From Dehalococcoidia bacterium (GTDB taxonomy: Bacteria > Chloroflexota > Dehalococcoidia > Lucifugimonadales > CAJWER01), in the NCBI GenBank assembly GCA_963666125.1, contig OY762633.1, positions 1,139,249 through 1,203,248 on the forward strand: a DNA stretch of 64,000 nt, given 5' to 3'. The notes beneath the pieces are model-generated. The model had not been told where the DNA came from and made no database searches. It was given only the letters and a program-made list of their open reading frames with translations. Made by a program: the position numbers and the translations under genes. Position 1 is the first letter of the stretch, and every line of letters starts with the position of its first letter. Shown one piece after another: positions 8,935 through 53,308 of this stretch.

Positions 8935-8957
8935 CTTCGACAGGCTCAGGGCGAACG
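8935..8957 (+). repeat. Dispersed intergenic repeat copy (clpP-clpX spacer)
   Basis: CTTCGACAGGCTCAGGGCGAACG, followed by a CGTTCGTGC segment at about 8973 that could pair with its 3' end. Confidence 0.7.
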
Positions 8958-8985
8958 ATCCTGGTATAAGTCCGTTCGTGCTTGC

Positions 8986-10946: not shown

Positions 10947-10981
10947 TCAGCGCTCCGCGTGGGGTCTACATACTGAGGACA

Positions 10982-10990
10982 ATTATATCA
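10982..10990 (-). promoter_or_regulatory. Extended -10 element (TGATATAAT on minus strand) upstream of tig
   Basis: The reverse complement of ATTATATCA gives TGaTATAAT, about 36 nt upstream of the tig GTG. Confidence 0.35.
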
Positions 10991-11091
10991 CCACCCTCCC
11001 GCGTCACTGCAACGAAACCGCGCACCGTATTCGCCCAAATCCAGCACTGCCAGAGGCCGGATTCGCGCCAATGACAGGCGCGTCGGGCCAG

Positions 11092-11100
11092 TGTTATGAT
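11092..11100 (+). promoter_or_regulatory. Extended -10 element (TGTTATGAT) placed for a leaderless ABC-ATPase mRNA
   Basis: The -10 ends 6 nt before ATG 11107. No Shine-Dalgarno sequence lies in between. Confidence 0.3.
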
Positions 11101-11106
11101 TGGCGC

Positions 11107-12000: not shown

Positions 12001-12003
12001 CGC

Positions 12004-35128: not shown

Positions 35129-35204
35129 GCCCCTGTAGCTCAGGCGGATAGAGCAACGGTTTCCTAAACCGTGTGCCCCGGTTCGAGTCCGGGCAGGGGT
35201 ACCA
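35129..35204 (+). tRNA. tRNA-Arg (anticodon CCT), CCA encoded
   Basis: Hand-folded cloverleaf: acceptor GCCCCTG/CAGGGGT, D-arm GCTC..GAGC, anticodon stem ACGGT/ACCGT with loop TTCCTAA, T-arm CCCGG-TTCGAGT-CCGGG, discriminator A, then CCA. Confidence 0.9.
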
Positions 35205-35217: not shown

Positions 35218-35246
35218 TTGACTTCCCATTTGCCTGCCGTTATACT
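35218..35246 (+). promoter_or_regulatory. Near-consensus sigma70-type promoter (TTGACT-17 nt-TATACT) for hsdM
   Basis: The -10 ends 6 nt before ATG 35253, with no SD in between, which predicts a leaderless hsdM transcript. Confidence 0.45.
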
Positions 35247-35252: not shown

Positions 35253-37106
35253 ATGGCAAATATAGCAGAACGGCAGGCTATCGCGCCGACCCTCCAGGCC
35301 ATCCGCGCCAGGCTGGACCTGACGCAGGAGCAGCTTGCCGAGCGGCTTGGCGTGTCGTTCGCCACGGTGAACCGCTGGGAGGGCGGCGCGACCACGCCCC
35401 AGAGGGCGGCGCGGACGGCCATCGCCGCGCTGGCTGCCGAGGCCGGAGTCGACGCAGCCGGGCCGGGCGTCGACGAGGCGGAGTCCGCCGCCCGCGTGAC
35501 CCGGCGGCGGTCCCGGCGGCGGCAGGCCGAAGTCCCGTCCACCAAGCCCATGGAGCAGATGCTGTGGGACGCGGCCTGCTCCATCCGGGGCGCAAAGGAC
35601 GCGGCCAAGTTCAAGGACTACCTGCTGCCCCTCCTCTTCCTCAAGCGCCTCTCGGACGTGTTCGACGACGAGATCGACCGGCTGGCCCAGGAGTTCGGGG
35701 ACCGGGCGATCGCGCAGGAGATCGCGGAGAGCGACCACGGCCTGCTCCGCTTCTACCTGCCGCCGGAGGCCCGCTGGGGCGTGGTCAACGGCCGGGAGGC
35801 CCACGACTGGCCCCTCGACGCCGGGGGCCGCAGCACCCGCCCCCGCGACGTCGGCGAGCACCTGACCATGGCCGTGCGCGCCGTCGTGCGCTACAACCCC
35901 ACCCTCTCAGGCGTCATCGACCTGGTGGACTTCGCCTCGGAGCGCAACGGGGAGCGCGACCTCAACCCGGCCCGCCTCGCCGCCGTCGTCGAGACCTTCT
36001 CCGACCCACGCTACCGCCTGGGGCTCGCCGACGTGCAGCCCGACTTCCTGGGTCGCGCCTACGAGTACCTTCTCAGAAAATTCGCCGAGGGCTCCGGCCA
36101 GAGCGCGGGCGAGTTCTTCACCCCCACCGAGGTCGGCTTCCTCATGGCCCACCTGATGCGCCCCCGGCCCGGCGAGACGTGCCACGACTACGCCTGCGGC
36201 TCGGCCGGGCTGCTCATCAAGCTCCAGCTCGTCGCCCGGGAGGCCGACCCCACCAGCCGCGTTCCCCTCAGGCTCTACGGGCAGGAGCTGCAGGCCGACA
36301 GCTACGCCGTCGCCCACATGAACGCCATCATCCACGACATGGAGGTCGAGATAGAGCGCGGCGACACGATGATCAACCCCAAGTTCAAGGACGCCGCCGG
36401 GCGGATATCCGGCCACGACATCGTGGTCGCCAATCCCATGTGGAACCAGGACTTCAACCCGGACATCTTCGAGAACGACCCCTTCGACCGCTTCCGGGCC
36501 GCCGGGGGCGTCACCACCGGCAGGGGCGACTGGGCATGGCTCCAGCACACTCTCGCCTGCCTGAACGAGCGCGGGCGCGCCGCCGTGGTGCTGGACACGG
36601 GCGCGGTGACCCGGGGCTCGGGCGCAAGGCACGAGGACAGGGAGCGAAACATCCGCAAGTGGTTCGTGGAGCGGGACCTGGTCGACGGCGTGATCCTGCT
36701 GCCGGACAACCTCTTCTACAACACCAGCGCCGCCGGCATCATCGTCGTCCTGTCCAGGCGCAAGCCGGAGGCCCGCAAAGGCAAGATCGTGCTCGTCAAC
36801 GCCGGCAGGCGCGTCGGCAAGGGCCGCCCCAAGAATTTCATACCGGACGACGACATCCAGCCGGTGGCGGCGATGTTCCTGGAGGGCGAGCCGGTGGAGG
36901 GCGAGGTCGCCGTCATCACGCGAGAGCAGGCGGCGGAGGCCGACTACAACCTCAGCCCGAGCCGGTGGGTGGGGCAGACGAGCTCGACAGAGGTGGGTTC
37001 GGTTCGTGACCTGCTAGCGGAGCTTGCCACACTTGACAGGGAAGCCCACCAGCTTTCGGCGTCGCTGCACAAACTCCTGGCTGGAGTTGCTGATGAGTCT
37101 GCTTGA
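35253..37106 (+). CDS. hsdM: Type I restriction-modification system methyltransferase subunit with N-terminal XRE-type HTH
   Basis: N-terminal [23 protein letters not shown]. HsdM_N region ([14 protein letters not shown]), SAM motif [10 protein letters not shown], and catalytic NPMW (NPPF-type). Confidence 0.92.
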
Positions 37107-38403
37107 TACTGAACTTGCCGAAGGTCGCCAGTGGCTGCGGTTGGGTGACGCGTACGAAGTCACGAAGAAGCCTCGTGGACTTGATATGGCTTCGTTGCCT
37201 GCGGTCCCGTTCGTACCGATGGACGCCATCCCTCAAGGCGGTGCATATACAGCCGACTACACGATGAGGCCCCCAGGTGAAATCAGGAGTGGGACCTACT
37301 TCGAGCGCGGCGACGCCCTGATTGCCAAGATTACGCCGTCGTTTGAAAACGGCAAGCAGGCTCTCGCGACCGGGCTACCGACACCCTTCGGCATTGCCAC
37401 TACCGAGGTTATCCCGCTTCGACCGTGCAAGGAAGGGCAAGACAGGCGATTGTTGTTCTTCTACTTGCTGCATCCCGATGTCCGCCATCATGTCGCTGAG
37501 CGCATGGAGGGCGCGACCGGGCGACAGCGCATACCCGCCGACGTACTCCTTGATCTGCCGTTCCCAAAGTTCGATTCCGAAGAACAAACGACTGTCTCAG
37601 ACATCTTAGAGATGATTCAACAGCTAATGGCTGTTGAGACACAATCGATTGAGACGACTCAAACCCTCAAGCGCGCCGCGATGCGGACGCTGTTCACGCG
37701 CGGGCTGAGGGGCGAGGCGCAGAAGGAGACGGAGATCGGGCCGGTGCCGGAGAGTTGGGAGATGGTGCACATCGGCGACATTTTCGAGATTGAGCAGGGT
37801 CTATCGCTCAAGGGCAATCTGGCCACCAACGGAGACGGGACACCATTTCTCCGAACGTCGAACGTCTATTGGGGAGAGATTGACCTTCAGGCGGTCAGCC
37901 GGATGCATCTCAAACGTGACCCCGTACAGGAGAAGCTGTTGACAGCGGGCGACCTGCTTGTCTGCGAGGGTGGAGATATAGGCCGCGCGGCGGTGTGGGA
38001 TGGCGAGATAGAACATTGCCTGTTTCAGAATCATCTCCATTGTCTGCGTCCCATCGACGCCTCCCGAACGGAACCTCGTTTCGTGATGGCATGGCTCGAA
38101 GAGGGCTTCAAGCATCGCAACGCGTACGAGGGCGCCGGCAACCGTACAACTATCCCCAACCTCTCCCGATCACGCCTGGCGGGGTTGTCGATCCCCCATC
38201 CATCCGCAGACGAGCAACGTGAGGTCGTGAGCATCCTGGACGCCATCGACCGCAAGATTGACCTGCACCGCCGCAAGCGTGCTATAATGGATCAGCTGTT
38301 CAAGACGCTGCTACACAAACTGATGACGGGGGATATACGTGTGGGGGAGTTGGGTATTGCAATGTTGCACGACGACACTGCAGAAGTCACTGCAGACAGA
38401 TAG
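37093..38403 (+). CDS. hsdS: Type I restriction-modification system specificity subunit
   Basis: Two target-recognition domains separated by a conserved spacer helix ([14 protein letters not shown]) and a matching C-terminal helix ([15 protein letters not shown]). Overlaps the hsdM end. Confidence 0.88.
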
Positions 38404-38417: not shown

Positions 38418-40007
38418 ATGAGAATCAAGAGCGCCACAATCAAGGATTTCAAGCGTTTCACAGATATGACCGTCCAGGGCATACCGGAAACTACTCGCCT
38501 CATTATGCTTGCTGGACCGAACGGTTCCGGTAAGTCGTCATTCTTTGATGCGCTTCACACTTGGCATAGATGGGCATCTCAAAAAAGACCGATATGGTCA
38601 GCGGACTACCATGTCAAAGCTGGCAGGCCTGACCTGGGAGGATGGGACAATAGTCTCTCGGCGGTGCAGTTCCATGACTCACAGTCCCATCCGGTAAAGA
38701 AGTCCCTCTACGTAAGGTCAGCCTACCGAAATGATCCTGAATTCAGAATCACTACGCTTCAAAGACAGGGAGACCTGCTGGATCTAACTCCATTCGGCCG
38801 AATGATTGACAATGACGCGGCAGTTGGGAGGAATTATCAACGGTTGGCCAGTCAGGGTCTGGTTGACTTGTATGGAGGTGGCTCCACAACATTCGATGAA
38901 TACCTAGAGCAGAGTATCGGTGCAGTACGGGGTCCATTGCTTAGGTTGTTCCCAGACCTCGCACTGGACAGTCTTGGAAATCCTTTGGAGAATGGAACCT
39001 TCCATTTTTCTAAGGGCACCAGTACAGGTTTTGCTTTCATGAATCTATCGGGTGGAGAGAAGGCTGCCTTTGACCTAATTCTAGATCTTGCTATTGCTAG
39101 GCGTTCCTACGACGATACGTTGTTCTGTATCGACGAGCCTGAATCTCATATGAATGCTCGTCTTCAAGCGGAATTGTTGTCTGTGCTGTATGAGCTAATC
39201 CCTGAGACCTGTCAACTAATGCTGGCGACTCACTCTGTAGGCATGATGCGCCGTGCCCGAGATATAGAAGCGCAACAGCCCGGAACTGTCATCTTCCTTG
39301 ATTTCGGTGAACGCGACTTTGATCAACCTCAGGTGATTGAGCCTACGGTTACCAACCGAGCGTTCTGGCAAAGAGCTTACGAAGTGGCGCTAGACGACCT
39401 CGCAGCACTGCTCGTACCTGAGAGGGTGGTGATCTGCGAGGGCGAGCCAATGAATTCATACTCGGGACAGAACTATTCTCACGATGCTCGTTGCTACCAG
39501 CGTACCTTTCAGACCGAATTCCCAGAAACGCAGTTCATTCCTGGAGGCAATGCATCAGAAGTCGCTGGTGACAAGCGTGGTATCGCGTATGCCTTAGGTA
39601 TGTTGACGCAGGGTACGCATGTCGTAAGGCTCGTTGACCGCGACGCAAGGTCACCACAAGAAGTTGACGAGTTGAAGAGGATCGGCGTGCGGGTACTATC
39701 GCGCCGCAATCTTGAATCCTACCTATTCGACAACGAAGTTCTACAGATATTAGCTCATTCAGTAGGAAGGTCCAATAAGGTCAATGACCTCTTAGCTGAA
39801 AAGCAGCGCATCATTATCCAGAGGACTGGAGATGCTCCTGACGACCTAAAGCCATCCAGTGGTGACATCTACAACGCATGCAAATCCATACTTGAACTCA
39901 CCAATCCCGGGAACAACACTAAGACCTTTATGCGCGACACCCTCGCTCCGCTCGTTCAGCCGGGGATGGCCGTGTACGACGAACTGAAGCGTGACATCTT
40001 CGGGTAG
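38418..40007 (+). CDS. ABC/SMC-type ATPase fused to a Toprim/DUF4435-like C-terminal domain (OLD-family / PARIS AriA-AriB-like)
   Basis: Walker A GPNGSGKSS, signature LSGGEK, Walker B LFCIDEPESHM, H-loop LATHS. The C-terminal domain carries VVICEGE, LVDRDARS and RRNLESYL, which resemble Toprim/DUF4435 motifs. Confidence 0.6.
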   Translation: MRIKSATIKDFKRFTDMTVQGIPETTRLIMLAGPNGSGKSSFFDALHTWHRWASQKRPIWSADYHVKAGRPDLGGWDNSLSAVQFHDSQSHPVKKSLYVRSAYRNDPEFRITTLQRQGDLLDLTPFGRMIDNDAAVGRNYQRLASQGLVDLYGGGSTTFDEYLEQSIGAVRGPLLRLFPDLALDSLGNPLENGTFHFSKGTSTGFAFMNLSGGEKAAFDLILDLAIARRSYDDTLFCIDEPESHMNARLQAELLSVLYELIPETCQLMLATHSVGMMRRARDIEAQQPGTVIFLDFGERDFDQPQVIEPTVTNRAFWQRAYEVALDDLAALLVPERVVICEGEPMNSYSGQNYSHDARCYQRTFQTEFPETQFIPGGNASEVAGDKRGIAYALGMLTQGTHVVRLVDRDARSPQEVDELKRIGVRVLSRRNLESYLFDNEVLQILAHSVGRSNKVNDLLAEKQRIIIQRTGDAPDDLKPSSGDIYNACKSILELTNPGNNTKTFMRDTLAPLVQPGMAVYDELKRDIFG

Positions 40008-40022: not shown

Positions 40023-40200
40023 ATGAACATTGAGCGAATCGCAGCCCTAGCCGCATCCGGTGAATCCGAGATGTTGGAGTTCAAGGAGGCTACCGGGACG
40101 CACCGCGAGGCGGCCATGAACTGTCTGCGCTCTTTCTGAACTAGGGCGACGAGTGCCGTTCGGTGTGACACGGACCGGCGTTTGATTGGAGAGCAAATGA
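40023..40200 (+). pseudogene. Decayed 5' fragment of an AlbA_2-domain gene
   Basis: A 38-codon ORF (MNIERIAALAASGESEMLEFKEATGTHREAAMNCLRSF*) parallels the N-terminus of the 41804 gene (IEALVASGESETLELKATTGTRREAAMTVCAFLN). Similarity continues out of frame (FLN*G.., VPFGVTRTG) and then is lost. Confidence 0.6.
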
Positions 40201-40677: not shown

Positions 40678-41004
40678 ATGAACTCACAGGTATCGATCCC
40701 AAGAGACGCCCTCCCGGGCTTCTGCCGGAAGCACGGGATACGGCGTCTGTCGGTCTTCGGCTCGGCGCTGCGGGAGGACTTCGGGCCGGAGAGCGACGTG
40801 GACGTGCTGGTGGAGTTCGAGGAGGGACGGACTCCCGGCCTGTTTGGCCTTGCCGCCATGGAGCTGGAGTTGTCCGCGCTTTTCTCGGGGCGCAAGGTCG
40901 ATCTGCGAACTCCCGAGGACCTGAGCCGCTACTTCAGGCAAGAGGTGCTGGACACGGCGGAGGTGCAGTACAGTGCTATCTTGGGCGGGCCAGCCGATGA
41001 ATGA
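40678..41004 (+). CDS. Minimal nucleotidyltransferase (MntA-like, pol-beta superfamily)
   Basis: FGSALREDFGPESDVDVLVEF (GS...DxD NTase motif) and GRKVDLRTPEDL. This family is normally paired with a HEPN/DUF86 toxin. Confidence 0.8.
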   Translation: MNSQVSIPRDALPGFCRKHGIRRLSVFGSALREDFGPESDVDVLVEFEEGRTPGLFGLAAMELELSALFSGRKVDLRTPEDLSRYFRQEVLDTAEVQYSAILGGPADE

Positions 41005-41659
41005 GCGCGTGTACGTATTCCTGGACGAGTCGGGGAACCTAGACTTCAGTCCCAGTGGGACCCGCTACTTTGTTTTGACCAGCGTGAGCATGAAGCGGCC
41101 ATTCCAGATGAACGACGCGCTGGACGGTTACAAGTATGACTGCATCGAGTACGGTTTGGAGCAGGAGCATTTCCACTGCGCCAATGACAACACGCATGTA
41201 CGCAACAGGGTTTTCGGCCTGATACAACACCGACTCGACGGCATGGAGATCGACAGTCTACGTGTGGAGAAAGCCAAGACCAGCCCTGCCCTAACGGTCG
41301 AGAGTCGTTTCTACCCGGAAATGCTTGGCTATCTTCTCAAGTACGTCCTAGCGAGACCGTCTCATGCCCAGTCCCAGGAGATCATCATCATCACGGACAC
41401 CATCCCGCTGCAAAAGCGGCGCCGTGCCATCGAAAAGGTCATCAAGTCCACTTTGGCGAATATGCTGCCCAAGGGCTCACGGTACCGGATCCTGCACCAC
41501 GATTCCCGCTCCCACTGCGGCCTGCAGGTCGCGGACTACTGCTGTTGGGCGGTCTTCAGGAAGCATGAGAAAGGGGATAGCGCCTACTTCGACCTCATTG
41601 GGCCTGCAGTGCGCAGCGATTTCGATATCTTCCGAACCGGAACGACGTACTACTACTGA
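40997..41659 (+). CDS. DUF3800 domain protein
   Basis: N-terminal VYVFLDESGN and C-terminal GLQVADYCCWAV, both DUF3800 hallmarks. ATG 40997 overlaps the MNT stop (ATGAATGA). Confidence 0.7.
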   Translation: MNERVYVFLDESGNLDFSPSGTRYFVLTSVSMKRPFQMNDALDGYKYDCIEYGLEQEHFHCANDNTHVRNRVFGLIQHRLDGMEIDSLRVEKAKTSPALTVESRFYPEMLGYLLKYVLARPSHAQSQEIIIITDTIPLQKRRRAIEKVIKSTLANMLPKGSRYRILHHDSRSHCGLQVADYCCWAVFRKHEKGDSAYFDLIGPAVRSDFDIFRTGTTYYY

Positions 41660-41787: not shown

Positions 41788-41793
41788 TATAAT
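41788..41793 (+). promoter_or_regulatory. Consensus -10 hexamer TATAAT upstream of the AlbA_2 regulator gene
   Basis: TATAAT ends 10 nt before ATG 41804. It overlaps the first in-frame ATG (41792), which argues for the downstream start. Confidence 0.3.
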
Positions 41794-41803
41794 GGATTCG
41801 CCA

Positions 41804-43207
41804 ATGAAATCCGATGAGATAGAGGCCCTGGTCGCCTCCGGCGAGTCTGAGACGCTGGAGCTCAAGGCCACTACCGGGACGCGCCGGGAGGCGGCGATGA
41901 CGGTGTGCGCCTTCCTGAACCAGCGCGGCGGGCAGGTGCTGTTCGGCGTGAGGCCGGACGGGGTCGTGGCTGGCCAGCAGGTCGGCGAGCGCACCATCGA
42001 GGAGCTGAGCGCCGAGCTTGGGCGAATCGACCCTCCGGCGTTCCCGACGGTGGAGCGGATCCCGGTGAGCGGCGACCGCGAGGTGATCGTGGTGACCGCA
42101 ACCCAGGGCACGTCGAGGCCGTACACCTACCGGGGCAGCGCCTACCGGCGGGTGGGGAACACGACGGTGGCAATGTCGTCCGACGAGTACAACCGGATGC
42201 TGTTCGAGCGGATGCACAGCGAGCAGCGCTGGGAGAACCGGCCCGCCGACGGGTGGTCGGTCGACGACCTGGACGCGGCGGAGATCCGCCGCACGGTCGC
42301 TGAGGCGGTCCGCCGGGGGCGGCTCGAGGAGCCCGTGAGCGGGGAGCCGCCGGACCTGCTGCGCGGGCTGGGCCTCCTGCGAGACGGGGTGCTGCTCCGG
42401 GCGGCCGCGGTGCTGTTCGGCAGTGCGGAGCGGCTGGAGTTCGAGATGCCCCAGTGCCTGCTCCGCGTCGCCCGTTTTCGCGGGGCCGACCGGATGGAGT
42501 TCCTGGACAATCGCCAGTTCACGGGCAACGCCTTCACGCTCCTGGCGAACGCGGAGCGCTTCCTGCGCGACACCCTGCCCATCGCCGGGCGGTTCGAGGC
42601 GAACCGATTCGAGCGGATCGACGAGCCGCTGTACCCGCCCCTGGCCACGCGCGAGGCGCTGGCGAATGCCCTGTGCCACCGGGACTACTCCATCGGGGGC
42701 GGCTCGGTGGGCATAGCGGTCTACGACGACCGCCTGGAGGTCACGTCCTCGGGGTCGCTGCACTTCGGCCTGACGCCGGAGAAGCTGTTCGTCCCCCACG
42801 AGTCGCGGCCCTGGAACCCGCTGATCGCCCGCACCTTCTACCGGCGCGGGATTATCGAGGAGTGGGGGAGCGGGACGCTGAAGATGGCGGACCTGTCGAG
42901 CAGCGCCGGGCTTCCGGTCCCGGAGATCGAGGACGACGGCGGGGCGGTGACCGTGCGCTTCCGGCACGGCGTGCCGGTCCCGGAGCGGCCCAACCGCGCG
43001 CCCAGTCCCGCCGAGCGGCGGGAGATGATACTCGCGCTGCTGGACGGCGCGGAGGAGGGACTGCCGAGGCGAGAGATTCACGCACGCTTGGGTTCCGGAG
43101 TTAGCGAGCGCCAGGTGCGAAGGACGCTGGAGGAGTTGAGAGAGCGCGGACTGGCCATGTCTACGAATCGCGGGACGCTGACGCGCTGGCGGCACATTGG
43201 GGCATGA
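41804..43207 (+). CDS. AlbA_2 (Schlafen-like) domain protein with HATPase_c_4-like domain and C-terminal winged-helix
   Basis: ESETLELK...VCAFLNQRGG, ALANALCHRDY...SRPWNPLIARTF, and a C-terminal ILALLDGAEEGLPRREIHARLG..SERQVRRTLEELRERG wHTH. Confidence 0.75.
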   Translation: MKSDEIEALVASGESETLELKATTGTRREAAMTVCAFLNQRGGQVLFGVRPDGVVAGQQVGERTIEELSAELGRIDPPAFPTVERIPVSGDREVIVVTATQGTSRPYTYRGSAYRRVGNTTVAMSSDEYNRMLFERMHSEQRWENRPADGWSVDDLDAAEIRRTVAEAVRRGRLEEPVSGEPPDLLRGLGLLRDGVLLRAAAVLFGSAERLEFEMPQCLLRVARFRGADRMEFLDNRQFTGNAFTLLANAERFLRDTLPIAGRFEANRFERIDEPLYPPLATREALANALCHRDYSIGGGSVGIAVYDDRLEVTSSGSLHFGLTPEKLFVPHESRPWNPLIARTFYRRGIIEEWGSGTLKMADLSSSAGLPVPEIEDDGGAVTVRFRHGVPVPERPNRAPSPAERREMILALLDGAEEGLPRREIHARLGSGVSERQVRRTLEELRERGLAMSTNRGTLTRWRHIGA

Positions 43208-43316
43208 TAGCGGCACGATACTGGCACGATAGGGGCGCGATAGGGGCGCGGTAGGGGCGCGGTAGGGGCGCGATAGGGGCGCGATAGGCGATACTGGCAC
43301 GATGGCGGCGCGTAGG
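43206..43316. repeat. Tandem degenerate 11-bp repeat array, block 1 (about 10 units, GATAGGGGCGC consensus)
   Basis: Units: GATAGCGGCAC GATACTGGCAC GATAGGGGCGC GATAGGGGCGC GGTAGGGGCGC GGTAGGGGCGC GATAGGGGCGC GATAGGC GATACTGGCAC GATGGCGGCGC. The array starts inside the stop codon of the upstream gene. Confidence 0.9.
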
Positions 43317-43351
43317 AGTGGCGAGTGAGACCCCTCGGGGCCTAAGGGGGT

Positions 43352-43493
43352 CTATAGGGGGCCTATGGGGGCGTTATGGGGGCGCGATACCGGCGCGATG
43401 GGTGCGCGATACTGCGCGATAGGGGCGCGATGGGTGCGCGATACTGCGCGATAGGGGCGAGGTAGGGGCGTTATGGGGGCGATATAAGGGGCG
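43352..43493. repeat. Tandem degenerate 11-bp repeat array, block 2 (about 13 units) with a 32-bp higher-order duplication
   Basis: CGATGGGTGCG-CGATACTGCG-CGATAGGGGCG occurs at 43396-43427 and again at 43428-43459. The array ends 3 nt before the hsdR ATG. Confidence 0.9.
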
Positions 43494-43496
43494 TCC

Positions 43497-46490
43497 ATGA
43501 CTGAGCTCAGGATTACCGAAGCAGGCTCCGTCCAGTTCCCGATGGTCCGCCACGCGGCGGAGGTCGGCTGGACGCCGCTGTCGCCATCGAACGCCCTCGC
43601 CATGCGAGGGGGCGAGGCCGGGCTGCTGTTTCGCGGCGTGCTGGAAGGGGCGCTGCGACGCTTCAACCCCTGGCTGACGGACGATGCCGTCCGCTCGGTG
43701 GTCGAGAACATCCAGGCGCTCCCGCCGACGGTCGAGGGCAACCGCCGGATGCTGGCCTGGCTGCGGGGCGAGCGGCAGTGGTACGACGAGGCCGAGAACC
43801 GCCAACGGCAGGTCCGGCTCATCGACTTCGACGAACCGGGCGCCAACGTCCTGCACGTGACCTGGGAGTGGCGGCTCAAGCCGCCCGCCCGCAAGGGCAA
43901 CCGAGCCGACGTGATGTTCGTGGTCAACGGCGTGCCGGCCGCCATCGTCGAGCACAAGAACCCGACGGACGCCGACGCCATAGAGCGGGGCGTCACGCAG
44001 CTGCGCCGCTACGAGGTCGAGACGCCGGAGCTGATGGGAGCGGCCCAGCTCTTCAACGTGACCCACCTGCTCGACTACTGGTACGGCGTCACCTGGAACC
44101 TGTCGCGCCGCTACATGGCGCGGTGGAAGGAGAGCCCGGAGGAGAGCTACCGGTTCGCCGTCCAGTCCTTCTTCGAGCCGACGGACTTCCTGCGCACCCT
44201 GCGCGACTGGATCCTCTTCTACGTGGAGGACGGCGAGACGCGGAAGACCGTGCTGCGCCAGCACCAGCGCCGCGCGGTGGACCGCATCGTCGAGCGGTGC
44301 GCCGAGACCGTGAAACGCCGAGGGCTCGTCTGGCACACCCAGGGGGCCGGCAAGACTTTTACCCTGCTCACCGCCGCCCGGCTGGTCCTGGAGGCCAGGG
44401 AGGAATTCGGCAACCCGACGGTAGTCGTCGTAGTGGACCGCACGGAGCTGGAGGGCCAGCTTGCGGGCTGGGTCGAGCGGCTGCTCGGGGAGATGCAGCA
44501 GCAGGACATCGACGTCCAGCGCGCCGGCTCGAAGGAAGAGCTGCGGGGAATGCTGGCCGCCGACAGGAGAGGGCTGATCATCTCGATGATCCACAAGTTC
44601 GAGGGCATCGAGAAGGACGCCAACCCCCGGGACAACATCTACGTGTTCATCGACGAGGCCCACCGCTCCGTGGCCAGGGAGCTTGGGACGTACCTGATGG
44701 CCGCGCTGCCCAACTCGACCATCGTCGGGTTCACCGGCACGCCCATCGCGCGAACGGAGCACGGGGAGGGGACATTCAAGATATTCGGGGCCGACGACGA
44801 GCAGGGCTACCTGGACAAGTACTCGATAGCCGAGTCCATCGAGGACGAGACGACGCTGCCGATCCGGCACACGATGGCGCCCAGCGAGATGAGGGTGCCG
44901 GCGGAGCAGCTCGACCGGGAGTTCTTCGCCCTGGCGGAGATGGAGGGCGTCACCGACGTCGACGAGCTCAACCGCGTGCTGGACCGGGCCGTGGGCCTGC
45001 GCACCTTTCTCTCAGCCGACGACAGGATCGAGAAGGTCGCGGCGTTCGTAGCCAGGCACTTGCAGGATAACGTGCTGCCCCTCGGCTACAAGGCGTTCCT
45101 GGTAGCGGTCAACCGGGAGGCCTGCGCCAAGTACAAGCGGGCGCTGGACAAGCTGCTGCCCCCCGAGTGGACCGTGCCCGTGTACTCGGAGAACACCAAC
45201 GACGTTGTTGAGAGGCCCCTCGTCGCCGAGCTTCAGCTTTCTGAGGAGCGGGAGAAGGACGTCCGCCTGACGTTCAAGAAGGCGAGCGAGGACCCGAAGC
45301 TGCTCATCGTCACCGACAAGCTGCTGACCGGCTTCGACGCGCCGCTGCTGTACTGCATGTACCTGGACAAGCCGATGCGCGACCACGTCCTCCTGCAGGC
45401 GATTGCGCGAGTGAACCGGCCGTACGTGGACGCGAAGGGAATCGGCAAGCCCATCGGCCTCGTCGTGGACTTCGTGGGCGTGCTGCGGGACCTGAGGAAG
45501 GCGCTGCAGTTCGACTCGTCCGACGTGAGCGGCGTGATCGAGGACCTCGAGCTGCTGATGCGCGACTTCCACGACAAGATTGCCGAGGCGAAGGCAAGAT
45601 ACCTGGACAACGCGACCGGCGGCGGAGTGGCCGAGACGCGGGCAGCCTATGCCGCCGCCGGAGGAGGCGCGGACGAGCGATTGGAGCAGGTCGTGTACAC
45701 GCGGTTTCTCGATCCCGATGCTCGCAAGGGGTTCTTCGAGGCGTACAAGGACATCGAGGCGTTGTGGGAGATACTCTCGCCATCCTCGGAGCTGCGCGAC
45801 CACATCGACACTTTCAGGCGTCTAACCCGTCTCTACGCCGTCGTCCGCAATGCCTACGCCGACCGTCCCGACTTCGTGGCGGATCTGGCGCACAAGACCC
45901 AGCGTCTCGTTGAAGAGTCGGCTACGATACACGGCCTGGGCAACCTCACCAAGGCAGTGAACTTCGACCTGCGCACCCTCACCGCTCTGCGGAACGAGTC
46001 GGGGCCGGACGAGGCCAAGGTGTTCAACCTGGTGCGCGGCCTCCAGGCGGAGGTGGAGAGCGAGCCGGAGCTGGAGTCCGTACTACGGCCTCTCAAGGAA
46101 CGCGCGGAGTCCGTGCTGAAGGGCCTCGAAGAGCGCACGACAACCGGGCTCGCGGCGATGGACATACTGGAGGCCCTCGCCAGGGAGAAGGAGGCTGCCG
46201 TCGCCGCCGCGAGGGACAGCACGCTGTCACCCAGGGCGTTCGGGGTGTACTGGACGCTGAAGGACGACCCCGCACTCGAAGCGGCCGGGGTGAGCGCAAC
46301 GGAGTTCGCGGAGGAGGCCCAGGCACTCGTGGACCGCTTTCCCAACGCCGCCGTCAACGCCGACGAGCAGCGACGGCTAAGGACTTCGCTGTACAACCCG
46401 TTGCTGAGGGTGGAAGGCGGCGAGCGGGGCCGGATCGTGGACCAGACCCTGGCGATACTGCTGGGCGGAGACGCCGATGCCGAGGCATGA
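43497..46490 (+). CDS. hsdR: Type I restriction enzyme R subunit
   Basis: HsdR_N nuclease region ([18 protein letters not shown]), helicase motif I TQGAGKT, motif [10 protein letters not shown], and later SF2 motifs. 997 aa. Confidence 0.93.
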
Positions 46491-46791
46491 CGACAGGTCC
46501 GGGGGCCTGCGACAGCGAGTGGAGTGCTGGGCAGAGCGCCTCCACGTCCCAGCGCCGCGCGTGCGAGTCCGGGACATGACCCGAAAGTGGGGTTCCTGCT
46601 CGACGGCCGGCACGATCACCCTTGCGACCGACCTGGGCAGCCAGGCCGTCGAGTTCCAGGACTTCGTTATCGCTCACGAGCTGCTGCACCTGCGGGTCCC
46701 GAACCACGGGAAGCTCTTCAAGGCTCTGATGAGTGCTCATGTCCCTGATTGGAGAAAGCACGACATCAGAAGAAAGATATCACCTGTATAA
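46477..46791 (+). CDS. Short DUF45/YgjP-like zinc metallopeptidase-fold protein
   Basis: [14 protein letters not shown] and [12 protein letters not shown] (HExxH). Overlaps the hsdR end by 14 nt. It is shorter than the typical roughly 230-aa family members as I recall them. Confidence 0.65.
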
Positions 46792-46801
46792 TCATAGATT
46801 C

Positions 46802-48202
46802 ATGCTGCTCACCATTTCCACGACATACCAGCCTGCTACGGATATTGGGTTCCTGTTGCACAAGAACCCGCTACGATTCCAGTCGTTCGACCTCCCGTTC
46901 GGGCGGGCGGATGTCTTGTACCCGGAAGCAGACGGCCATCGCTGCACGGCGGCGCTCCTGCTGAGCATCGATCCGGTGGGTCTTGTACGGTCGAAGCCCG
47001 GTGCCCCCGGTGCCGGGGACTGGCTTGGGCAATACGTGAACGACCGTCCCTACGTGGCGTCGTCACACCTGAGCGTGGCGATCTCCTCGGTATTCGGCAG
47101 CGCGCTCGCGGGGAAAAGCAGGGACCGGCCGGACCTCGCGGAAACGGCCATCCCGCTGGAAGCACATCTCCCCGTGGCGCCATCCCGTGAAGGTGCCGAC
47201 CTCATCAGGAGGTTGTTCGAGCCGCTTGGCTACAGCGTCGAGGTCGAGGAGCTCCGGCTGGATGAGCGTTTCCCCGAGTGGGGCGCCAGCCCATACTTCG
47301 GCGTGCGCCTCGCGTCGACGGCCCGGCTCCGCGACCTGCTCGCCCACCTGTACGTGCTGCTGCCCGTCCTCGACGACGAAAAGCACTACTGGATCAGCGA
47401 CGACGAGGTGGCCAAGCTGCTGCGCTTCGGCGAGGGGTGGCTGGCCAGCCATCCGCTGCGAACCCTCATATCCAGGCGATACCTGAAGCACCAGCGCAGC
47501 CTCGTCGACCAGGCGCTGGTCCAACTGCTCGACGCCGGGCCGGCCGACCCAGGCGCCGCTGCCACGCGGCACGAACGGGAAGAGGAGCAGCTCGAAGCCA
47601 CCCTTCGACTGGGTGAGCAGCGTACGCGGGCAGTGCTGGCCGCGCTCCGCGACGCCGGCGCTTCCAGGGTGCTCGATCTCGGGTGCGGCGAGGGCAGGCT
47701 GATCGGGGGACTGCTCGAGGAGCCTTCGATCCGGTCGATAACCGGCCTCGACGTCTCACACCGGGCGCTGGAAACGGCGCGCAGGCGTTTGCGCCTCGAT
47801 AGGCTGCCCACCCAGCAGCGGGACCGCGTCACCCTGCTGCACGGCTCCCTCACCTACACGGACGGACGGCTCTCGGGCCACGACGCCGCGGTGGCCATGG
47901 AGGTGATCGAGCACATAGACCCGACGCGGCTCGACGCCTTCGAGGAGGCCGTATTCGGGACCGCGAAACCCGACAGTGTCATCGTCACCACGCCCAATGC
48001 GGAGTACAACGTGCTATTCGAGGGGCTGCCCGACGGGGCGTTCAGGCACGGGGACCACCGCTTCGAGTGGACGCGGGGGGAATTCCAGGACTGGTCGAGC
48101 CGGGTCGCGGACCGGCGCAAGTGCGACGTACGCTTCCAGGGCATCGGCCCGGCCCATCCCGCCCATGGCGCACCGACCCAGATGGCCGTCTTTACCCGAT
48201 GA
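46802..48202 (+). CDS. hen1: 3'-terminal RNA ribose 2'-O-methyltransferase Hen1 (bacterial RNA repair)
   Basis: N-terminal MLLTISTTYQPATDIGFLLHKNP (Pnkp-ligase-activating domain) and a C-terminal SAM MTase with VLDLGCGEGRL and MEVIEHID. Confidence 0.88.
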   Translation: MLLTISTTYQPATDIGFLLHKNPLRFQSFDLPFGRADVLYPEADGHRCTAALLLSIDPVGLVRSKPGAPGAGDWLGQYVNDRPYVASSHLSVAISSVFGSALAGKSRDRPDLAETAIPLEAHLPVAPSREGADLIRRLFEPLGYSVEVEELRLDERFPEWGASPYFGVRLASTARLRDLLAHLYVLLPVLDDEKHYWISDDEVAKLLRFGEGWLASHPLRTLISRRYLKHQRSLVDQALVQLLDAGPADPGAAATRHEREEEQLEATLRLGEQRTRAVLAALRDAGASRVLDLGCGEGRLIGGLLEEPSIRSITGLDVSHRALETARRRLRLDRLPTQQRDRVTLLHGSLTYTDGRLSGHDAAVAMEVIEHIDPTRLDAFEEAVFGTAKPDSVIVTTPNAEYNVLFEGLPDGAFRHGDHRFEWTRGEFQDWSSRVADRRKCDVRFQGIGPAHPAHGAPTQMAVFTR

Positions 48203-50769
48203 AGATCACCATTCCCGAGCTATGTCTCGTCGCGCTCGTCGGGCCCACGGGCTCGGGTAAGTCCCACTTCGCCTCCCGCCACTTCAAGCCCACGGAAGTG
48301 ATCTCCTCGGACGCCTGCAGGGCGATGGTTGCGGATGACGCCACCGACCAGGCCGCAACGCCCGATGCCTTTGCGGTGCTCGAATTCATCGCGGCTACAC
48401 GCCTGCGCGCCGGTCGCCTCACCGTCATCGATGCCACCAGCGTACAGCCGCAGGCGCGGAAGTCCCTGGTGGACCTAGCCAGGGAGCATGACTGCCCTGC
48501 GGTGGCCATCGTGCTGAACATGCCGGAGGCCCTGTGCCTGGCCCGCAACAGGGAGCGCCCCGACCGGTCGTTCGGGCGCCGGGTCGTATACCAGCAGGCT
48601 TCGCAGCTTAGGCGGTCCCTGCGCGGGCTGAAGCGCGAAGGCTTCCGGTACGTGTTCATGCTCGATTCCCCTGAGGAGGCTGAAGCGGTCACCATCGAGC
48701 GGGCGCCCATGTGGACCAACCTCCGGCACGAGCGCGGTCCATTCGACATCATCGGCGACGTGCACGGCTGTTTCGACGAGCTCGTCACCCTCCTGGAACG
48801 CCTGGAGTATCGGGTGGAGACCCGCGCCGACGCCTCCGGGGAGACCCTGTTCTCCGTAACGCATCCCCAGGGGCGAAAGGCCGTATTCGTCGGCGACCTC
48901 GTGGACCGCGGCCCGGGCGTCCCCAACGTGCTCAGACTCGTGATGTCCATGACGGCGGACGGCGTAGGGCTCTGCGTGGCGGGCAATCACGAGTCCAAGC
49001 TCGTCCGCAAGCTTCAGGGCAGGAACGTGCAGGTATCCCACGGACTGGCGGAATCCCTTGAGCAATTGGAGACGGAGTCCCGGGGGTTCCGACAACGGGC
49101 CACCGAGTTCCTGGACGGACTGATAAGCCACTACGTGCTCGACGACGGGAACCTGGTGGTGGCCCACGCGGGGATAAAGGCTGAGTACCAGGGCCGCGCG
49201 TCAGCCCGCGTCCGGGACTTCTGCCTGTATGGCGAGACCACCGGGGAGACGGACGAGTTCGGACTCCCAATACGCGCCAACTGGGCGGCCGGCTATCGCG
49301 GGAAAGCCATGGTCGTCTACGGCCATACCGCGGTCGTGGAGCCCGCCTGGCTCAACCGCACCATCAACATCGACACGGGCTGTGTATTCGGCGGCAAGCT
49401 GACCGCGCTGCGGTACCCCGAAAGGGAGCTCGTGTCGGTTCCGGCGGCGCGGGTCTACTACGCTCCGGTGAGACCCCTCGCCGAGGCCGCCCAGCCGGGA
49501 GAGGCCACCGCTACGGACGGTGCTCGCCCGGCGAACGTCCTCGACATAGGCGACGTGATCGGGAAGCGCGTCGTTGCTACGCGGCTCCGCGGCAACATCA
49601 CCGTGCGAGAAGAGAACGCGGCGGCGGCCCTCGAAGTGATGAGCCGCTTCGCCCTGGACCCCCGCTGGCTGGTCTACCTTCCGCCCACAATATCCCCATG
49701 TGAGACATCGGAGCTCCCCGGCCTGCTCGAACATCCAGCCGAGGTGTTCGCCTACTTCCGCAACAACGGCGTGTCCAGCGTGGTCTGCGAAGAGAAGCAC
49801 ATGGGTTCACGGGCCGTCGTCGTGGTTGGGCAAGACGCCGATGCCATCGAGCGGCGCTTCGGCATCGCCGAGGGTATCGGCGCCTGCTACACGCGGACAG
49901 GGCGAAGGTTCTTCGAAGACCGCGACCTCGAGGCGCAGCTCCTGGAACGCGTCCGTGCGGGTATTTCGCACGCCGGGCTCTGGGACGAGCTGGGGACCGA
50001 CTGGGTGGTGCTGGACAGCGAGCTCATGCCGTGGTCCCTCAAGGCGCAAGAGCTGCTCCGCGAACAGTACGCCGCTGTCGGTGCGGCTGCGCAGACCGGC
50101 CTCACGGTCGCCGAGTCCCTCCTCCGCCAGACGGCGGAGCGCGGCATCGACGACGCCGGTGCTCTGGCCAGGGTCAAAGATCGGCTCAGCCTCGCCCAGC
50201 TCTACAGAGCCTCCTACGCACGGTATTGCTGGCCGGTGACGTCGCTCGCCGACATCCGGTTTGCGCCCTTCCACCTGCTCGCGAGCGAAGGCCGGCTGCA
50301 CACCGACAAGGACCACCTGTGGCACATGAAAGTGGCCGCGCGCCTGCACGAAGCCGATCCGGCGTTCTTCCGGAATACCGAGCACAGGGTCGTGCGCCTG
50401 GACACGTCCGATGAGTCCGAGGCCACGCGCTGGTGGGAGGAGCTGACGGGCAAGGGAGGTGAGGGCATGGTCGTGAAGCCGACGGCCTTCGTCTCGAAGG
50501 GCAAGCGCGGCCTGGTACAGCCCGCCATGAAGTGCAGGGGAGCCGAATACCTGCGCATCATCTACGGACCGGAGTACACCCTGCCGGAGAACCTGGATCG
50601 TCTGCGAAACAGGGGCATTTCCGCAAAGAGGTCTCTCGCCCTTCGGGAGTTCGCACTGGGCGTAGAGGGCCTACAGCGCTTCGTGGAACGAGAGCCGCTC
50701 TACCGGGTGCATGAGTGCGCCTTCGGGGTACTCGCTCTCGAGAGCGAGCCGGTCGACCCAAGGCTATGA
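48199..50769 (+). CDS. pnkp: Polynucleotide kinase-phosphatase-ligase Pnkp (bacterial RNA repair)
   Basis: P-loop kinase GPTGSGKSH. Calcineurin-type phosphatase GDVHGC, GDLVDRGP, GNHE. C-terminal adenylyltransferase with the EEKHMGSR lysine motif. ATG overlaps the hen1 stop (ATGA). Confidence 0.88.
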   Translation: MKITIPELCLVALVGPTGSGKSHFASRHFKPTEVISSDACRAMVADDATDQAATPDAFAVLEFIAATRLRAGRLTVIDATSVQPQARKSLVDLAREHDCPAVAIVLNMPEALCLARNRERPDRSFGRRVVYQQASQLRRSLRGLKREGFRYVFMLDSPEEAEAVTIERAPMWTNLRHERGPFDIIGDVHGCFDELVTLLERLEYRVETRADASGETLFSVTHPQGRKAVFVGDLVDRGPGVPNVLRLVMSMTADGVGLCVAGNHESKLVRKLQGRNVQVSHGLAESLEQLETESRGFRQRATEFLDGLISHYVLDDGNLVVAHAGIKAEYQGRASARVRDFCLYGETTGETDEFGLPIRANWAAGYRGKAMVVYGHTAVVEPAWLNRTINIDTGCVFGGKLTALRYPERELVSVPAARVYYAPVRPLAEAAQPGEATATDGARPANVLDIGDVIGKRVVATRLRGNITVREENAAAALEVMSRFALDPRWLVYLPPTISPCETSELPGLLEHPAEVFAYFRNNGVSSVVCEEKHMGSRAVVVVGQDADAIERRFGIAEGIGACYTRTGRRFFEDRDLEAQLLERVRAGISHAGLWDELGTDWVVLDSELMPWSLKAQELLREQYAAVGAAAQTGLTVAESLLRQTAERGIDDAGALARVKDRLSLAQLYRASYARYCWPVTSLADIRFAPFHLLASEGRLHTDKDHLWHMKVAARLHEADPAFFRNTEHRVVRLDTSDESEATRWWEELTGKGGEGMVVKPTAFVSKGKRGLVQPAMKCRGAEYLRIIYGPEYTLPENLDRLRNRGISAKRSLALREFALGVEGLQRFVEREPLYRVHECAFGVLALESEPVDPRL

Positions 50770-50791
50770 GCGCGCCCACCGGGGCAGCGTG

Positions 50792-53308
50792 TCATCTCCC
50801 GCTGGGGATACTGCCGTTGCGCTTGCCGTTGGCGGACACCTTGATCTCGCCCGTCGCGGAGGCGGGGACCTCCAACTCGCCGACGCAGGCTATCGAGGCC
50901 ACGGAGTCGCCCTGGTCCAGCTTGAATATCGTGACGCCCTGTGCCGCCCTGCCCGTGCTCCGGATCTCGGAGAGGTTCGTCCTGAGCACCTTGGCCTTCG
51001 AGGAGACGACGTAGAGCTCGTCGCTGTCCGTTATCACCTGTGCGGCGGCGACCTGTCCGGTCTTTCTCGTGACCTTCAGCGTCTTGACGCCCTGACCGCC
51101 TCGCCCCTGGGGACGGTACCGATTGAGGTCCGTCAGCTTGCCGTACCCCTTCCTGCTGATCACGAGAAGCTTGCTGTTCGGCACCACCACGTCCATGGCG
51201 ATGACGACGTCCCGGGCGAGGAGCTCCATGCCCTTCACGCCGCCGGCAGCCCTGAGGCGGGGCGTGACTTCGGCCAGGGCGAAGCGGATGGACTGCCCCT
51301 GCCGCGTGACCATCATCACGTCGTCTTCCTCGGAGGCCAGGCGCGCCGTGACAAGCTCGTCGTCGTCGCGGAGGTTCATGATGATGAGCCCGGCCCGGCG
51401 AACGTTGGCGATCTGGTCGACCGTGACACGCTTGACCAGCGCCTTCCTCGTGGCCAGGACGAGATAGCGCCCCTCCACGCCCAAGTCCGGCACCGCCACT
51501 ACGGCGTTCACGTGCTCCCTGTCGGTGAGGGGTATGACGTTGACCACCGGCACGCCGCGCGAATTCCTCGTCGTGTCGGCCCTTAGCTCGTACGACTTCA
51601 GGGGCAGCACCCGCCCCGTATTGGTGAAGAAGAGCAGTGTGTCGTGGGTGTCGCAGACCAAGATGTGCTCGACGGGGTCGTCCTCGCGGGTCGCCATGCT
51701 GACGACGCCCTTGCCTCCCCTGTGCTGGTTGCGGTACGTGCTGGCGGGGATGCGCTTCACGTAGCCGCCCTGGCTGAGGGTGATCACGATCTGCTCGTGG
51801 GGCTCCAGGTCCTCACGCCTGAAGTCGCGTACGTCCTCACCGATGATGGTGCGACGCTCGCCCCCGTGCTTCTTCTTGAGCGCCATCGTCTCCTTCTTGA
51901 TCTCGGCGTCGACCTTCTCGGGGTCCTCCAGCAACTCCTCCAGGCCCTTGATCGTGGCCTGAAGCTCCCTGTACTCGCTCTCGATCTTCTCGCGCTCCAG
52001 AGCGGCGATCCGCCTGAGCTGCATGTCCAGGATGGCCTGGGCCTGCAGGTCGGACAGGTCGTACCACTCCATGAGCTGGCTCTTGGCCGTCTCGGCGTCC
52101 GGCGCGTTCCGGATCAGCGCGATGACGGCGTCCAGGTTCGACAGCGCGACCCTGAGGCCCTCCAGTATGTGGGACCGCTCCTGCGCCTTTCGCAGCTGGA
52201 ACTGCGCCCTGCGCCTGATGACCACCCGGCGGAAATCTATGAACTCCATGAGCGCGTCGCGCAGGGTGATCACCCTGGGCGTGCCATCGACCAGCGCCAG
52301 CATGTTGGCCGAGAAGGTGCTCTGCATCGCGGTCATCTTGAAGAGCTTGTTCAGGATCACCAGGCCTTGAGCGCCGGACCTCAGCTCCATCACGATCCGC
52401 ATGCCCCGGCGATCCGACTCGTCCCGGATCTCGGATATGCCCTCCAGCCGCTTGCCCTTGACGAGCCCGGCGATCTTCTCGATCAGCGTGGCCTTGTTGA
52501 CCTGGTACGGCAGCTCCGTGACGACGATCTGCATCCGGCCTGACCGCTTCATCGGCTCGATGGTCGCGGTGCCCCGGACGACGATCTGGCCGCGCCCGGT
52601 CTCGTAGGCCTCACGGATGCCCTCGGTGCCCATGATGGTCGCGCCGGTCGGGAAGTCCGGCCCATGAACGCGCCGCATGAGCTCGGAAGTCGTAGGTTCG
52701 GGATTCCTGAGCAGCAGGTATATCGCGTCGCACAGCTCCGACAGGTTGTGGGGCGGGATGTTCGTCGCCATCCCCACGGCAATCCCGGCCGCCCCGTTGA
52801 GCAGCAGGTTCGGGAGCCTTGCGGGAAGGAGCACCGGCTCCGTAAGGCTCGCGTCGAAGTTGTCTATGAAGTCGACGGTCTCCTCGTCGAGGTTGGCGAG
52901 CATCTCCTCGGCGGGGGAGCTCAGGCGCGCCTCCGTATATCGCATGGCAGCCGGCGGGTCGTTGTCGATACTGCCGAAGTTCCCTTGGCCGTCGACCAGC
53001 GGCACACGCATCGAGAAGTCTTGGGCCATGCGTACCATGGCGTCGTAGACGGCGGCCTCGCCGTGGGGGTGGTACTTGCCCAGCACCTCACCGACGAGCC
53101 TGGCGCTCTTCTTGTAGGAGGAGTTGGACCTCATGCCAAGCTCCTGCATCGCGTAGAGGATCCGGCGCTGCACGGGCTTGAGACCGTCCCGCACGTCCGG
53201 CAACGCCCGGGCGACGATGACGCTCATGGCGTAGTCCATGTAGGACGAGCGCATCTCCTCCTCGAGCTGCTTGGGCATGATGAAACCGTATTCGGTCTTG
53301 GTTACCAT
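50792..53308 (-). CDS. gyrA: DNA gyrase subunit A
   Basis: [35 protein letters not shown] (active-site Tyr), and the C-terminal beta-pinwheel repeats. Confidence 0.97.

Follow-up and report, generated by a model that had tools for sequence, protein, structure and literature searches.

A hen1-pnkp RNA repair cassette lying directly behind a type I restriction-modification operon in a probable Dehalococcoidia defence island

A soil Dehalococcoidia bacterium (phylum Chloroflexota), known from contig OY762633.1, carries on one strand of its chromosome four closely packed genes: hsdR of a type I restriction-modification (R-M) system, a short YgjP-like gene, and the hen1 and pnkp genes predicted to specify an RNA repair system. 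They form the right-hand end of a 15.6-kb island, at 35.2-50.8 kb of a stretch of 64,000 nucleotides (nt) that was analyzed as a whole and is called the window here (contig positions 1,139,249 to 1,203,248). The GC content of the window is ~66%, and the nearest relatives of its Hen1 are in metagenome-assembled genomes of the class Dehalococcoidia. From left to right the island comprises hsdM with a helix-turn-helix (HTH) domain, hsdS, a gene for a fused ABC ATPase-Toprim protein (ABC-Toprim), a Schlafen fragment, an MNT gene, a DUF3800 gene, a Schlafen gene, an array of 11-nt repeats, hsdR, YgjP, hen1 and pnkp. An original prediction, made from the letters alone, took the last four genes to be one co-transcribed unit and suggested that tRNA is cleaved on R-M inhibition and is then repaired and immunized. 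The identities it gave to the four genes are borne out by Pfam, NCBIfam and PDB sequence matches, and its coordinates and spacings for them proved exact. The features at this end of the island, with the meeting point of the two sets of genes, are as follows.

43497..46490, + strand: hsdR (Pfam HSDR_N, SWI2_SNF2/ResIII and T1R_D3; TIGR00348)
46477..46791, + strand: mini-YgjP (DUF45), zinc-metallopeptidase-like, HELLH motif, 104 amino acids (Pfam YgjP-like, E 1.4e-26)
46777..46801, + strand: junction of R-M module and hen1 cassette, with TATAAT at 46787-46792 overlapping AATCAT at 46790-46795, and without a Shine-Dalgarno sequence
46802..48202, + strand: hen1, predicted RNA 3'-terminal 2'-O-methyltransferase with a Pnkp-ligase-activating N-terminal domain (Pfam; TIGR04074)
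48199..50769, + strand: pnkp, predicted 5' kinase, 2',3' phosphatase and RNA ligase (Pfam; TIGR04075)

The hsdR stop codon (TGA, 46488-46490) lies beyond the YgjP ATG at 46477, giving a 14-nt overlap, while the YgjP stop codon (TAA, 46789-46791) is followed after a 10-nt gap by the hen1 ATG at 46802, and the stop of hen1 and start of pnkp share the ATGA at 48199-48202, a 4-nt overlap. The overlap of hsdR and YgjP is identical in the relatives with gene calls (L161, L166, L168 and L169; L numbers denote the loci compared with the window), and the ATGA overlap of hen1 and pnkp is present in 29 of 61 relatives. These two tight junctions are family traits, and the only one specific to the window is the 10-nt junction of YgjP and hen1.

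By sequence, Hen1 and Pnkp belong to the bacterial RNA-repair families, at full length and with high scores. Hen1 matches Pfam Hen1_L (E 1.3e-106) and a methyltransferase domain, scores 672 bits with TIGR04074 against a cut-off of 340, and matches the solved structures 4dqz and 4e6n (N-terminal domain) and 3jwh (methyltransferase). Pnkp matches Pfam AAA_33, Metallophos and PNKP_ligase, and scores 1386 bits with TIGR04075 against a cut-off of 750, its residues 1-856 aligning to positions 1-851 of the 851 of that model; it also matches the solved 4mde (kinase), 4j6o (phosphatase), and 3ty5 and 4drf (ligase), and has the P-loop GPTGSGKS, the motifs GDVHGC, GDLVDRG and GNHE, and the ligase motif KHMG. 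Domains, gene order and co-orientation are those of the Pnkp-Hen1 system of Clostridium thermocellum and Anabaena variabilis (Martins and Shuman; Chan, Zhou and Huang; PMC4411300, PMC3675462), whose enzymes heal, 2'-O-methylate and seal ribotoxin-cleaved RNA (PMC4411300). There is no intrinsic difference from that system; only the upstream neighbor, hsdR-YgjP at 10 nt, is unusual, and the -35 element of close relatives is missing.

The neighborhoods of hen1 were compared in the best 80 of more than 575 Hen1 matches, which are 55-78% identical, come from many phyla and were taken with up to 10 kb of flank per side; upstream sequence amounted to at least 400 nt in 77 of the 80 and at least 3.5 kb in 65. 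Relatives of HsdR, YgjP, the ABC-Toprim protein or the Schlafen protein were found in the flanks of none of these 80 loci, even at E 1e-3. Any hsdM at all is near Hen1 in just two of them, 3-6 kb downstream, and a DUF3800 gene in one. When the flanking open reading frames were clustered, hen1 and pnkp were all that is shared across lineages. Around the 13 closest cassettes there are genes for IS21, IS110 and DDE transposases as well as for resolvases and integrases, tRNA genes lie near the cassette in L002, L011 and L014, and Pnkp is encoded on 19 plasmids, one of which, of 25.6 kb, is mobilizable. In six loci (L015, L025, L033, L052, L053 and L079) a gene for an RlaP-family (PF10127) nucleotidyltransferase is situated between hen1 and pnkp; the window has no RlaP gene. 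On the plasmids L164 (pAMS5b, 2903-12804) and L165 (4933-12091), hen1-pnkp is a few kb from genes for RNase-type toxins, with recombinase or transposase genes nearby. The toxin of one of these plasmids is a 'ribonuclease domain' protein accompanied by an Imm8 immunity protein and that of the other is BrnT, contexts that fit an anti-ribotoxin role of hen1-pnkp. The idea that hen1-pnkp is a phage-borne counter-defence was rejected, there being no match in 50,697 phage records; 2.9 million viral contigs gave a single Hen1 match, 37% identical. A comparative paper on RNA-repair gene neighborhoods by Burroughs and Aravind (2016) is said to place RNA-repair systems in conflict contexts generally.

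Approached from the other side, the best 80 of more than 590 HsdR matches, in metagenome loci and 47-81% identical, all keep the order hsdM-hsdS-(variable insert)-hsdR; HsdM, HsdS and HsdR of the type I set are likewise encoded together in the window (Pfam, NCBIfam and PADLOC REase_I). In 72 of the 80, hsdR is directly followed by a YgjP gene just as short as that of the window, the remaining eight loci ending at or within hsdR. The mini-YgjP, of ~100-125 amino acids across the window and these 72 loci, covers only the C-terminal, HExxH half of the Pfam YgjP-like profile (positions 116-200 for the protein of the window), and its HELLH is invariant in the alignment; a PDB search by sequence found no solved relative. 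The mini-YgjP is a fixed partner of this HsdR family. That the 104-residue protein of the window was truncated by an insertion was rejected, as all 72 relatives are equally short and its conserved core is complete.

Downstream of YgjP, hen1 or pnkp was found in none of the 48 HsdR loci with at least 1.5 kb beyond that gene, nor in five further contexts (L161/L162 and L166-L169). The slot is occupied in the 48 by mixed genes, among them AriA/OLD/GajA-like ATPases, Abi_2, Mrr, type II methyltransferases, recombinases and housekeeping genes, and in L166, L168 and L169, three more contexts that extend past YgjP, by genes for a Schlafen protein, a dehydrogenase and a transposase, respectively. The nearest R-M relatives, L161 and L162, have 88% DNA identity to the window over 43473-46756 and an HsdR 89% identical to its own, and they have a TIR-domain gene where the window has hen1-pnkp, and a CBASS system upstream. 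Enrichment of hen1 and pnkp near R-M or defence genes, to which the original prediction had looked, is thus not seen in either sample. Since the pairing is found nowhere else in the sample, a chance join is indicated and not a new coupled system.

The two modules meet within ~10 nt, as the conserved core of YgjP ends at about residue 98-100 (~46776), past which the tails of the relatives all differ, and the hen1-side alignment starts at ~46785, from where the window aligns with the -10 region upstream of hen1 in relatives. DNA homology to L161 stops at 46756 and protein homology near 46776. The GC content of third codon positions is 0.90 for hsdR, 0.76 for YgjP, 0.84 for hen1 and pnkp and 0.91 for core genes, steps that are consistent with separate histories of the R-M module and the cassette.

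What lies on the hen1 side of the boundary is informative about expression. Upstream of hen1 the relatives have TTGnnn, a spacer of 16-19 nt, and a TAnnnT that ends 5-9 nt before the ATG, with no Shine-Dalgarno sequence, and to judge by these motifs the region clearly has the geometry of a promoter for a leaderless mRNA. Of 79 loci, 29 have TAnnnT at 5-9 nt from the hen1 start, where the background is 2.5%, and 11 have the full -35/-10 pair, for which it is 0.2%; among the 15 closest relatives the pair is found in 10. The element in the window that aligns with the TACCAT of relatives is AATCAT (46790-46795), and overlapping it is a perfect TATAAT (46787-46792), 9 nt before the hen1 ATG, so that it was wrong to say, as had been said, that the packing leaves no room for promoters. 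No Shine-Dalgarno sequence precedes hen1, and the 50 nt before its ATG (46752-46801) are 64% AT, which is in the top 0.04% of all 50-nt segments of the window. The same layout is found at hsdM, with TTGACT, 17 nt, TATACT and an ATG 6 nt later; that a promoter-like site ends 6 nt before the hsdM ATG suggests that leaderless mRNAs are usual here, and where such mRNAs are used a lack of intergenic space does not exclude an internal promoter. On these motifs an internal promoter before hen1 is likely. There is then likely to be a candidate promoter that is independent of hsdR, with a consensus -10 box aligned with the leaderless-type promoter of relatives, in a place where the original prediction had seen a single operon. 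The + strand of the 64-kb window has five copies of TATAAT. Those at 38283, 40599, 41788 and 46787 are at, or no more than 135 nt upstream of, the starts of the ABC-Toprim, MNT, Schlafen and hen1 genes, and each inserted module may have brought its own promoter.

We think it likely that the segment between the tRNA-Arg(CCT) gene at the left edge of the island and gyrA at its right is a defence island of mosaic make-up, put together from modules that are mobile independently of each other, and that an insertion beside the tRNA gene joined a self-contained R-M operon to an autonomous hen1-pnkp. One module would be the type I R-M operon, consisting of HTH-hsdM, hsdS, the guardian-like ABC-Toprim gene, an optional Schlafen gene, hsdR and mini-YgjP; the other would be the hen1-pnkp cassette, which in relatives appears as a free-standing pair with what looks like its own leaderless-type promoter, in transposase-rich variable regions, beside tRNA genes or on plasmids. 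The insertion would have left ~25 nt from the conserved end of YgjP to the hen1 ATG, and could have come about in two orders, either with the R-M module entering the tRNA site upstream of a resident hen1-pnkp or with the cassette entering at the 3' edge of the R-M module. The cassette would have retained its -10 box (TATAAT or AATCAT) and lost its -35 box, and hen1-pnkp is probably expressed both from the leaderless promoter and by unterminated read-through from hsdR. The role of Hen1-Pnkp is most likely the general one of the family, that is, to heal the 2',3'-cyclic phosphate/5'-OH breaks made by transesterifying ribotoxins, to methylate the 2'-OH and to seal.

Several observations weigh against such a mosaic of independent parts. 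The window is without the -35 element found in relatives, and because of this the internal hen1 promoter may be weak. The gap between YgjP and hen1 is just 10 nt and no terminator is predicted from hsdR to hen1, so one transcript probably runs from hsdR to pnkp irrespective of the internal promoter. A type I hsdM is present within 10 kb downstream in two of the 13 closest hen1-pnkp loci (L001 and L013), which, taken with the window, gives a hint that defence or variable islands are where the cassette tends to settle; a loose association with such islands may exist. As to termination, a scan from hsdR to the pnkp stop gave matches at the level of chance, 7 against 7.5 expected, with one weak match inside hen1, and as no terminator intervenes hsdR read-through into hen1-pnkp is possible. 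What stands of the co-transcription of four genes originally proposed is the packing and the lack of a detectable terminator; set against it is the internal consensus -10 box aligned with the promoters of relatives.

The same features can be read as the insertion having broken the promoter of the cassette, with hen1-pnkp now the tail of the hsdR-YgjP transcript and coupled to termination on YgjP, a capture that would be accidental and not adaptive. The missing conserved -35 element would be expected from this, and besides the 10-nt gap without a terminator, the distance from the YgjP stop to the hen1 ATG permits reinitiation. In opposition are the perfect TATAAT at a leaderless distance within a stretch of such extreme AT richness, the presence in the same island of an hsdM with the same geometry, and the lack of a Shine-Dalgarno sequence before hen1, as would be the case for a leaderless gene. 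Complete dependence on the hsdR transcript is considered rather unlikely, and it is the mosaic with a hen1 promoter at least partly retained that is preferred.

The remaining features of the island and its borders are these.

35129..35204, + strand: tRNA-Arg(CCT) gene, left edge of the island (ARAGORN; Rfam, 63 bits)
35218..35246, + strand: promoter-like TTGACT-17-TATACT, ending 6 nt before the hsdM ATG (consensus scan, 10 of 12 positions matching)
35253..37106, + strand: hsdM with N-terminal HTH domain (Pfam N6_Mtase, HsdM_N and HTH_3)
37024..38403, + strand: hsdS (Pfam Methylase_S)
38418..40007, + strand: fused ABC ATPase-Toprim protein, putative nuclease, PARIS AriAB-like, 529 amino acids (Pfam AAA_21, AAA_15 and SMC_N; PADLOC AriAB)
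40023..40139, + strand: remnant of a Schlafen/AlbA_2 N-terminus, a pseudogene fragment (80%-identical direct repeat of 41825-41900)
40678..41004, + strand: MNT-type nucleotidyltransferase (Pfam NTP_transf_2; PADLOC PDC-S09; NCBIfam MntA below its cut-off)
40973..41659, + strand: DUF3800 protein (Pfam DUF3800, E 8e-17)
41792..43207, + strand: Schlafen AlbA_2-HATPase_c_4-HTH protein (Pfam; the equivalent L161 gene is 85% identical)
43206..43493, no strand assigned: tandem array of an 11-nt unit, GATAGGGGCGC, in ~27 degenerate copies (Tandem Repeats Finder; repeat families D1/D2)
50792..53308, - strand: gyrA, bounding the island (translation of the open reading frame; third-position GC content 0.91, like other core genes)

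The island begins, with the hsdM open frame, 3 nt past the tRNA-Arg(CCT) gene, and the DNA homology to L161-L163, whose HsdM is 86% identical to that of the window in protein sequence, begins at 35253. No att-type repeat of the 3' end of the tRNA gene was found at the YgjP/hen1 junction or after pnkp. On the right the border is with the convergent gyrA, the stop codons of pnkp and gyrA being 22 nt apart. There is no terminator-like hairpin at 50767-50794 between these two genes, and with stops so close the pnkp and gyrA transcripts should run antisense into each other. Outside the island, upstream of aroQ-pepP and beside topA, the segment 30157-33508 has genes for a ParA-like ATPase and a second Schlafen/AlbA_2-HATPase_c_4 protein, both on the - strand, and for a XerC/D-type recombinase, and it may be another small mobile or defence patch.

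A 69-residue Schlafen/AlbA_2 fragment is also situated behind the ABC-Toprim gene in L161 (11604-11813) and in L166 (8619-8828). The fragment at 40023-40139, which repeats the beginning of the full Schlafen gene at 41792, is probably a recombination scar marking where cargo, in the window the MNT and DUF3800 genes, went in; no HEPN partner for the MNT gene was seen in the island. The GATAGGGGCGC array, of 288 nt, fills the whole gap from the Schlafen-HTH gene to hsdR and stops 3 nt short of the hsdR ATG. Within the window the motif is confined to 43206-43493, and the same gap in L161 (14267-14448) has a few copies. With a unit of one helical turn it looks like an expanded operator array, which might be bound by the Schlafen-HTH protein encoded upstream or by the HTH-fused HsdM.

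Central to any functional link between restriction and repair is the protein encoded at 38418-40007. Its ATPase head matches AAA_21 (E 4.5e-19), AAA_15 (E 1e-11) and SMC_N of Pfam, while the C-terminal 250 residues have no Pfam match, DUF4435 going undetected even at E 10. The best PADLOC models are those for fused AriAB (E 1.6e-23, residues 204-456) and AriA, with AriAB models also covering residues 350-472, and the signature of Toprim, E341-G342 and D407xD409, does not vary among 34 aligned homologues. Folded alone, the C-terminal domain gave a predicted local distance difference test (pLDDT) score of 80 and a beta-alpha repeat topology. With this model the top Foldseek match was PARIS AriB (8ux9_A), at a probability of 0.95 but a template modelling (TM) score of 0.31, followed by the OLD Toprim 6nk8, both being weak matches. 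The full-length model brought up mostly PtuA, GajA and SMC heads, and a PDB sequence search with the profile of the protein found ABC ATPase heads only. We read it as an OLD/PARIS-type ATPase-Toprim protein, and putative nuclease, closest to fused AriAB; forms of PARIS with AriAB as a single polypeptide exist (PMC9122126).

There are more than 3,700 homologues at E <1e-5, the best 120 of them at least 65% identical. In all five homologue look-ups, which cover seven places (L161-L163 and L166-L169), the gene is between hsdS and hsdR. Its start overlaps the hsdS stop at five of these places, in L163 by ~50 nt. Its GC content is 51% in a genome of 66%. To judge from its placement, the fused ABC-Toprim gene, for a protein of ~530 residues, is a fixed and translationally coupled part of a widespread family of type I R-M operons, in the position of PrrC. 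PrrC and PARIS are regarded as guardians of R-M (PMC12707154), and the suggestion that the 38418-40007 protein has such a guardian function gains from its predicted fold, like that of PARIS AriAB, as well as from its location between hsdS and hsdR. No paper was found that describes a PARIS-like gene built into an R-M operon.

PARIS, which is activated by an anti-restriction protein and cleaves specific tRNAs, shares the ABC ATPase and, to judge by the matches, the Toprim domain, here in one polypeptide with the catalytic E-G and DxD kept, but it is a free cassette in a satellite hotspot, whereas the window gene is inside an R-M operon, is coupled to hsdS in relatives and its product is without a DUF4435 match. 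The type IC EcoprrI-PrrC system has a gene for a P-loop/ABC-type ATPase-nuclease in the same position between hsdS and hsdR (PMC12707154); the window protein differs in its Toprim-like C-terminus, and neither an AAA_13/PrrC Pfam match nor an anticodon-nuclease domain was found in it. Class 1 OLD nucleases and Gabija GajA share the ABC ATPase and Toprim architecture, and GajA, PtuA and Eco8 are structural matches for the ATPase domain, though the OLD and GajA models are weaker than the AriAB models on the window protein and cover the ATPase part only.

Whether repair would suit such a nuclease depends on the ends it makes. AriB cuts hydrolytically with two metals, and the ends of its products are 3'-OH and 5'-phosphate (PMC12409363); nicks of this kind are in principle sealable by the Pnkp ligase without kinase or phosphatase steps. 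Protection by Hen1 is another matter. Its methylation protects by taking away the 2'-OH nucleophile of transesterifying ribotoxins (PMC4411300), and as a Toprim enzyme cleaves by hydrolysis and not by attack of the 2'-OH, 2'-O-methylation is not expected to stop it. The immunizing step of the original prediction therefore does not follow for a Toprim nuclease (PMC12409363, PMC4411300), and among the island genes there is no evident RNase of a metal-independent kind such as HEPN.

This bears on the possibility of a guardian-and-repair circuit in which a phage inhibits the type I enzyme, the ABC-Toprim protein cuts tRNA and growth is arrested, after which co-transcribed Hen1-Pnkp reseals the tRNA, or else Hen1-Pnkp buffers a leaky nuclease. 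The tight packing without a terminator would suit it, as would a protein most like PARIS AriAB that is integral to the R-M operon family, since PARIS and PrrC are guardians (PMC12707154), and so would ends that a ligase can seal without healing (PMC12409363). A precedent for healing and sealing in the same setting is phage T4, which answers PrrC with Pnk and Rnl1 (PMC12409363); those enzymes are phage-encoded, whereas the repair genes of the window are on the host side and their linkage is not conserved. Against the circuit, no second example was met among ~53 R-M relatives and 80 Hen1 loci, the nearest relatives having the TIR gene in the slot, and the cassette appears to have its own promoter in relatives, with the -10 box kept in the window. 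Moreover, 2'-O-methylation should not block a two-metal Toprim enzyme, the kinase and phosphatase modules would be idle, the target of the putative nuclease may be tRNA or DNA, and repair would oppose the logic of abortive infection unless tightly timed. Such a circuit is judged improbable, and the cleave-repair-immunize scheme finds neither comparative nor clear mechanistic support. No paper linking Pnkp/Hen1 to R-M was found in the literature searched, and the original prediction likewise knew of no described system of this kind. A misassembly, with YgjP and hen1 brought together as a chimera in a chromosome assembled from a metagenome, is very hard to credit since, even with a junction unique among the sampled relatives and a shift of composition across it, the window proteins are on a 3.03-Mb contig, there is no misjoin-prone repeat or insertion sequence at the junction, and both flanking frames are intact with a clean end and start within 10 nt.

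A join that was accidental could have become functional later. Read-through from hsdR would then co-express Hen1-Pnkp with a PARIS-like Toprim tRNase, and the Pnkp ligase would reseal tRNA nicks with 3'-OH/5'-phosphate ends. This is a long shot, but if true it would turn abortive infection into reversible dormancy, or buffer the self-toxicity of the nuclease, and no repair arm encoded by the host would have been seen before in an R-M guardian system. Were the coupling real, a cell would be undoing its own tRNA-cleaving immunity, with a bearing on whether such responses are truly 'abortive'.

The components are all of known kinds and the junction of YgjP and hen1 is a one-off among the sampled loci. 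From the perspective of R-M, the more reusable by-product is the PARIS-like ABC-Toprim gene that appears fixed in a type I family in the position of PrrC, together with the mini-YgjP partner of HsdR. For the mosaic of an R-M operon and a repair cassette, likely as it is, the meaning would be that defence islands are assembled from self-contained modules docked end to end, close enough to imitate operons.

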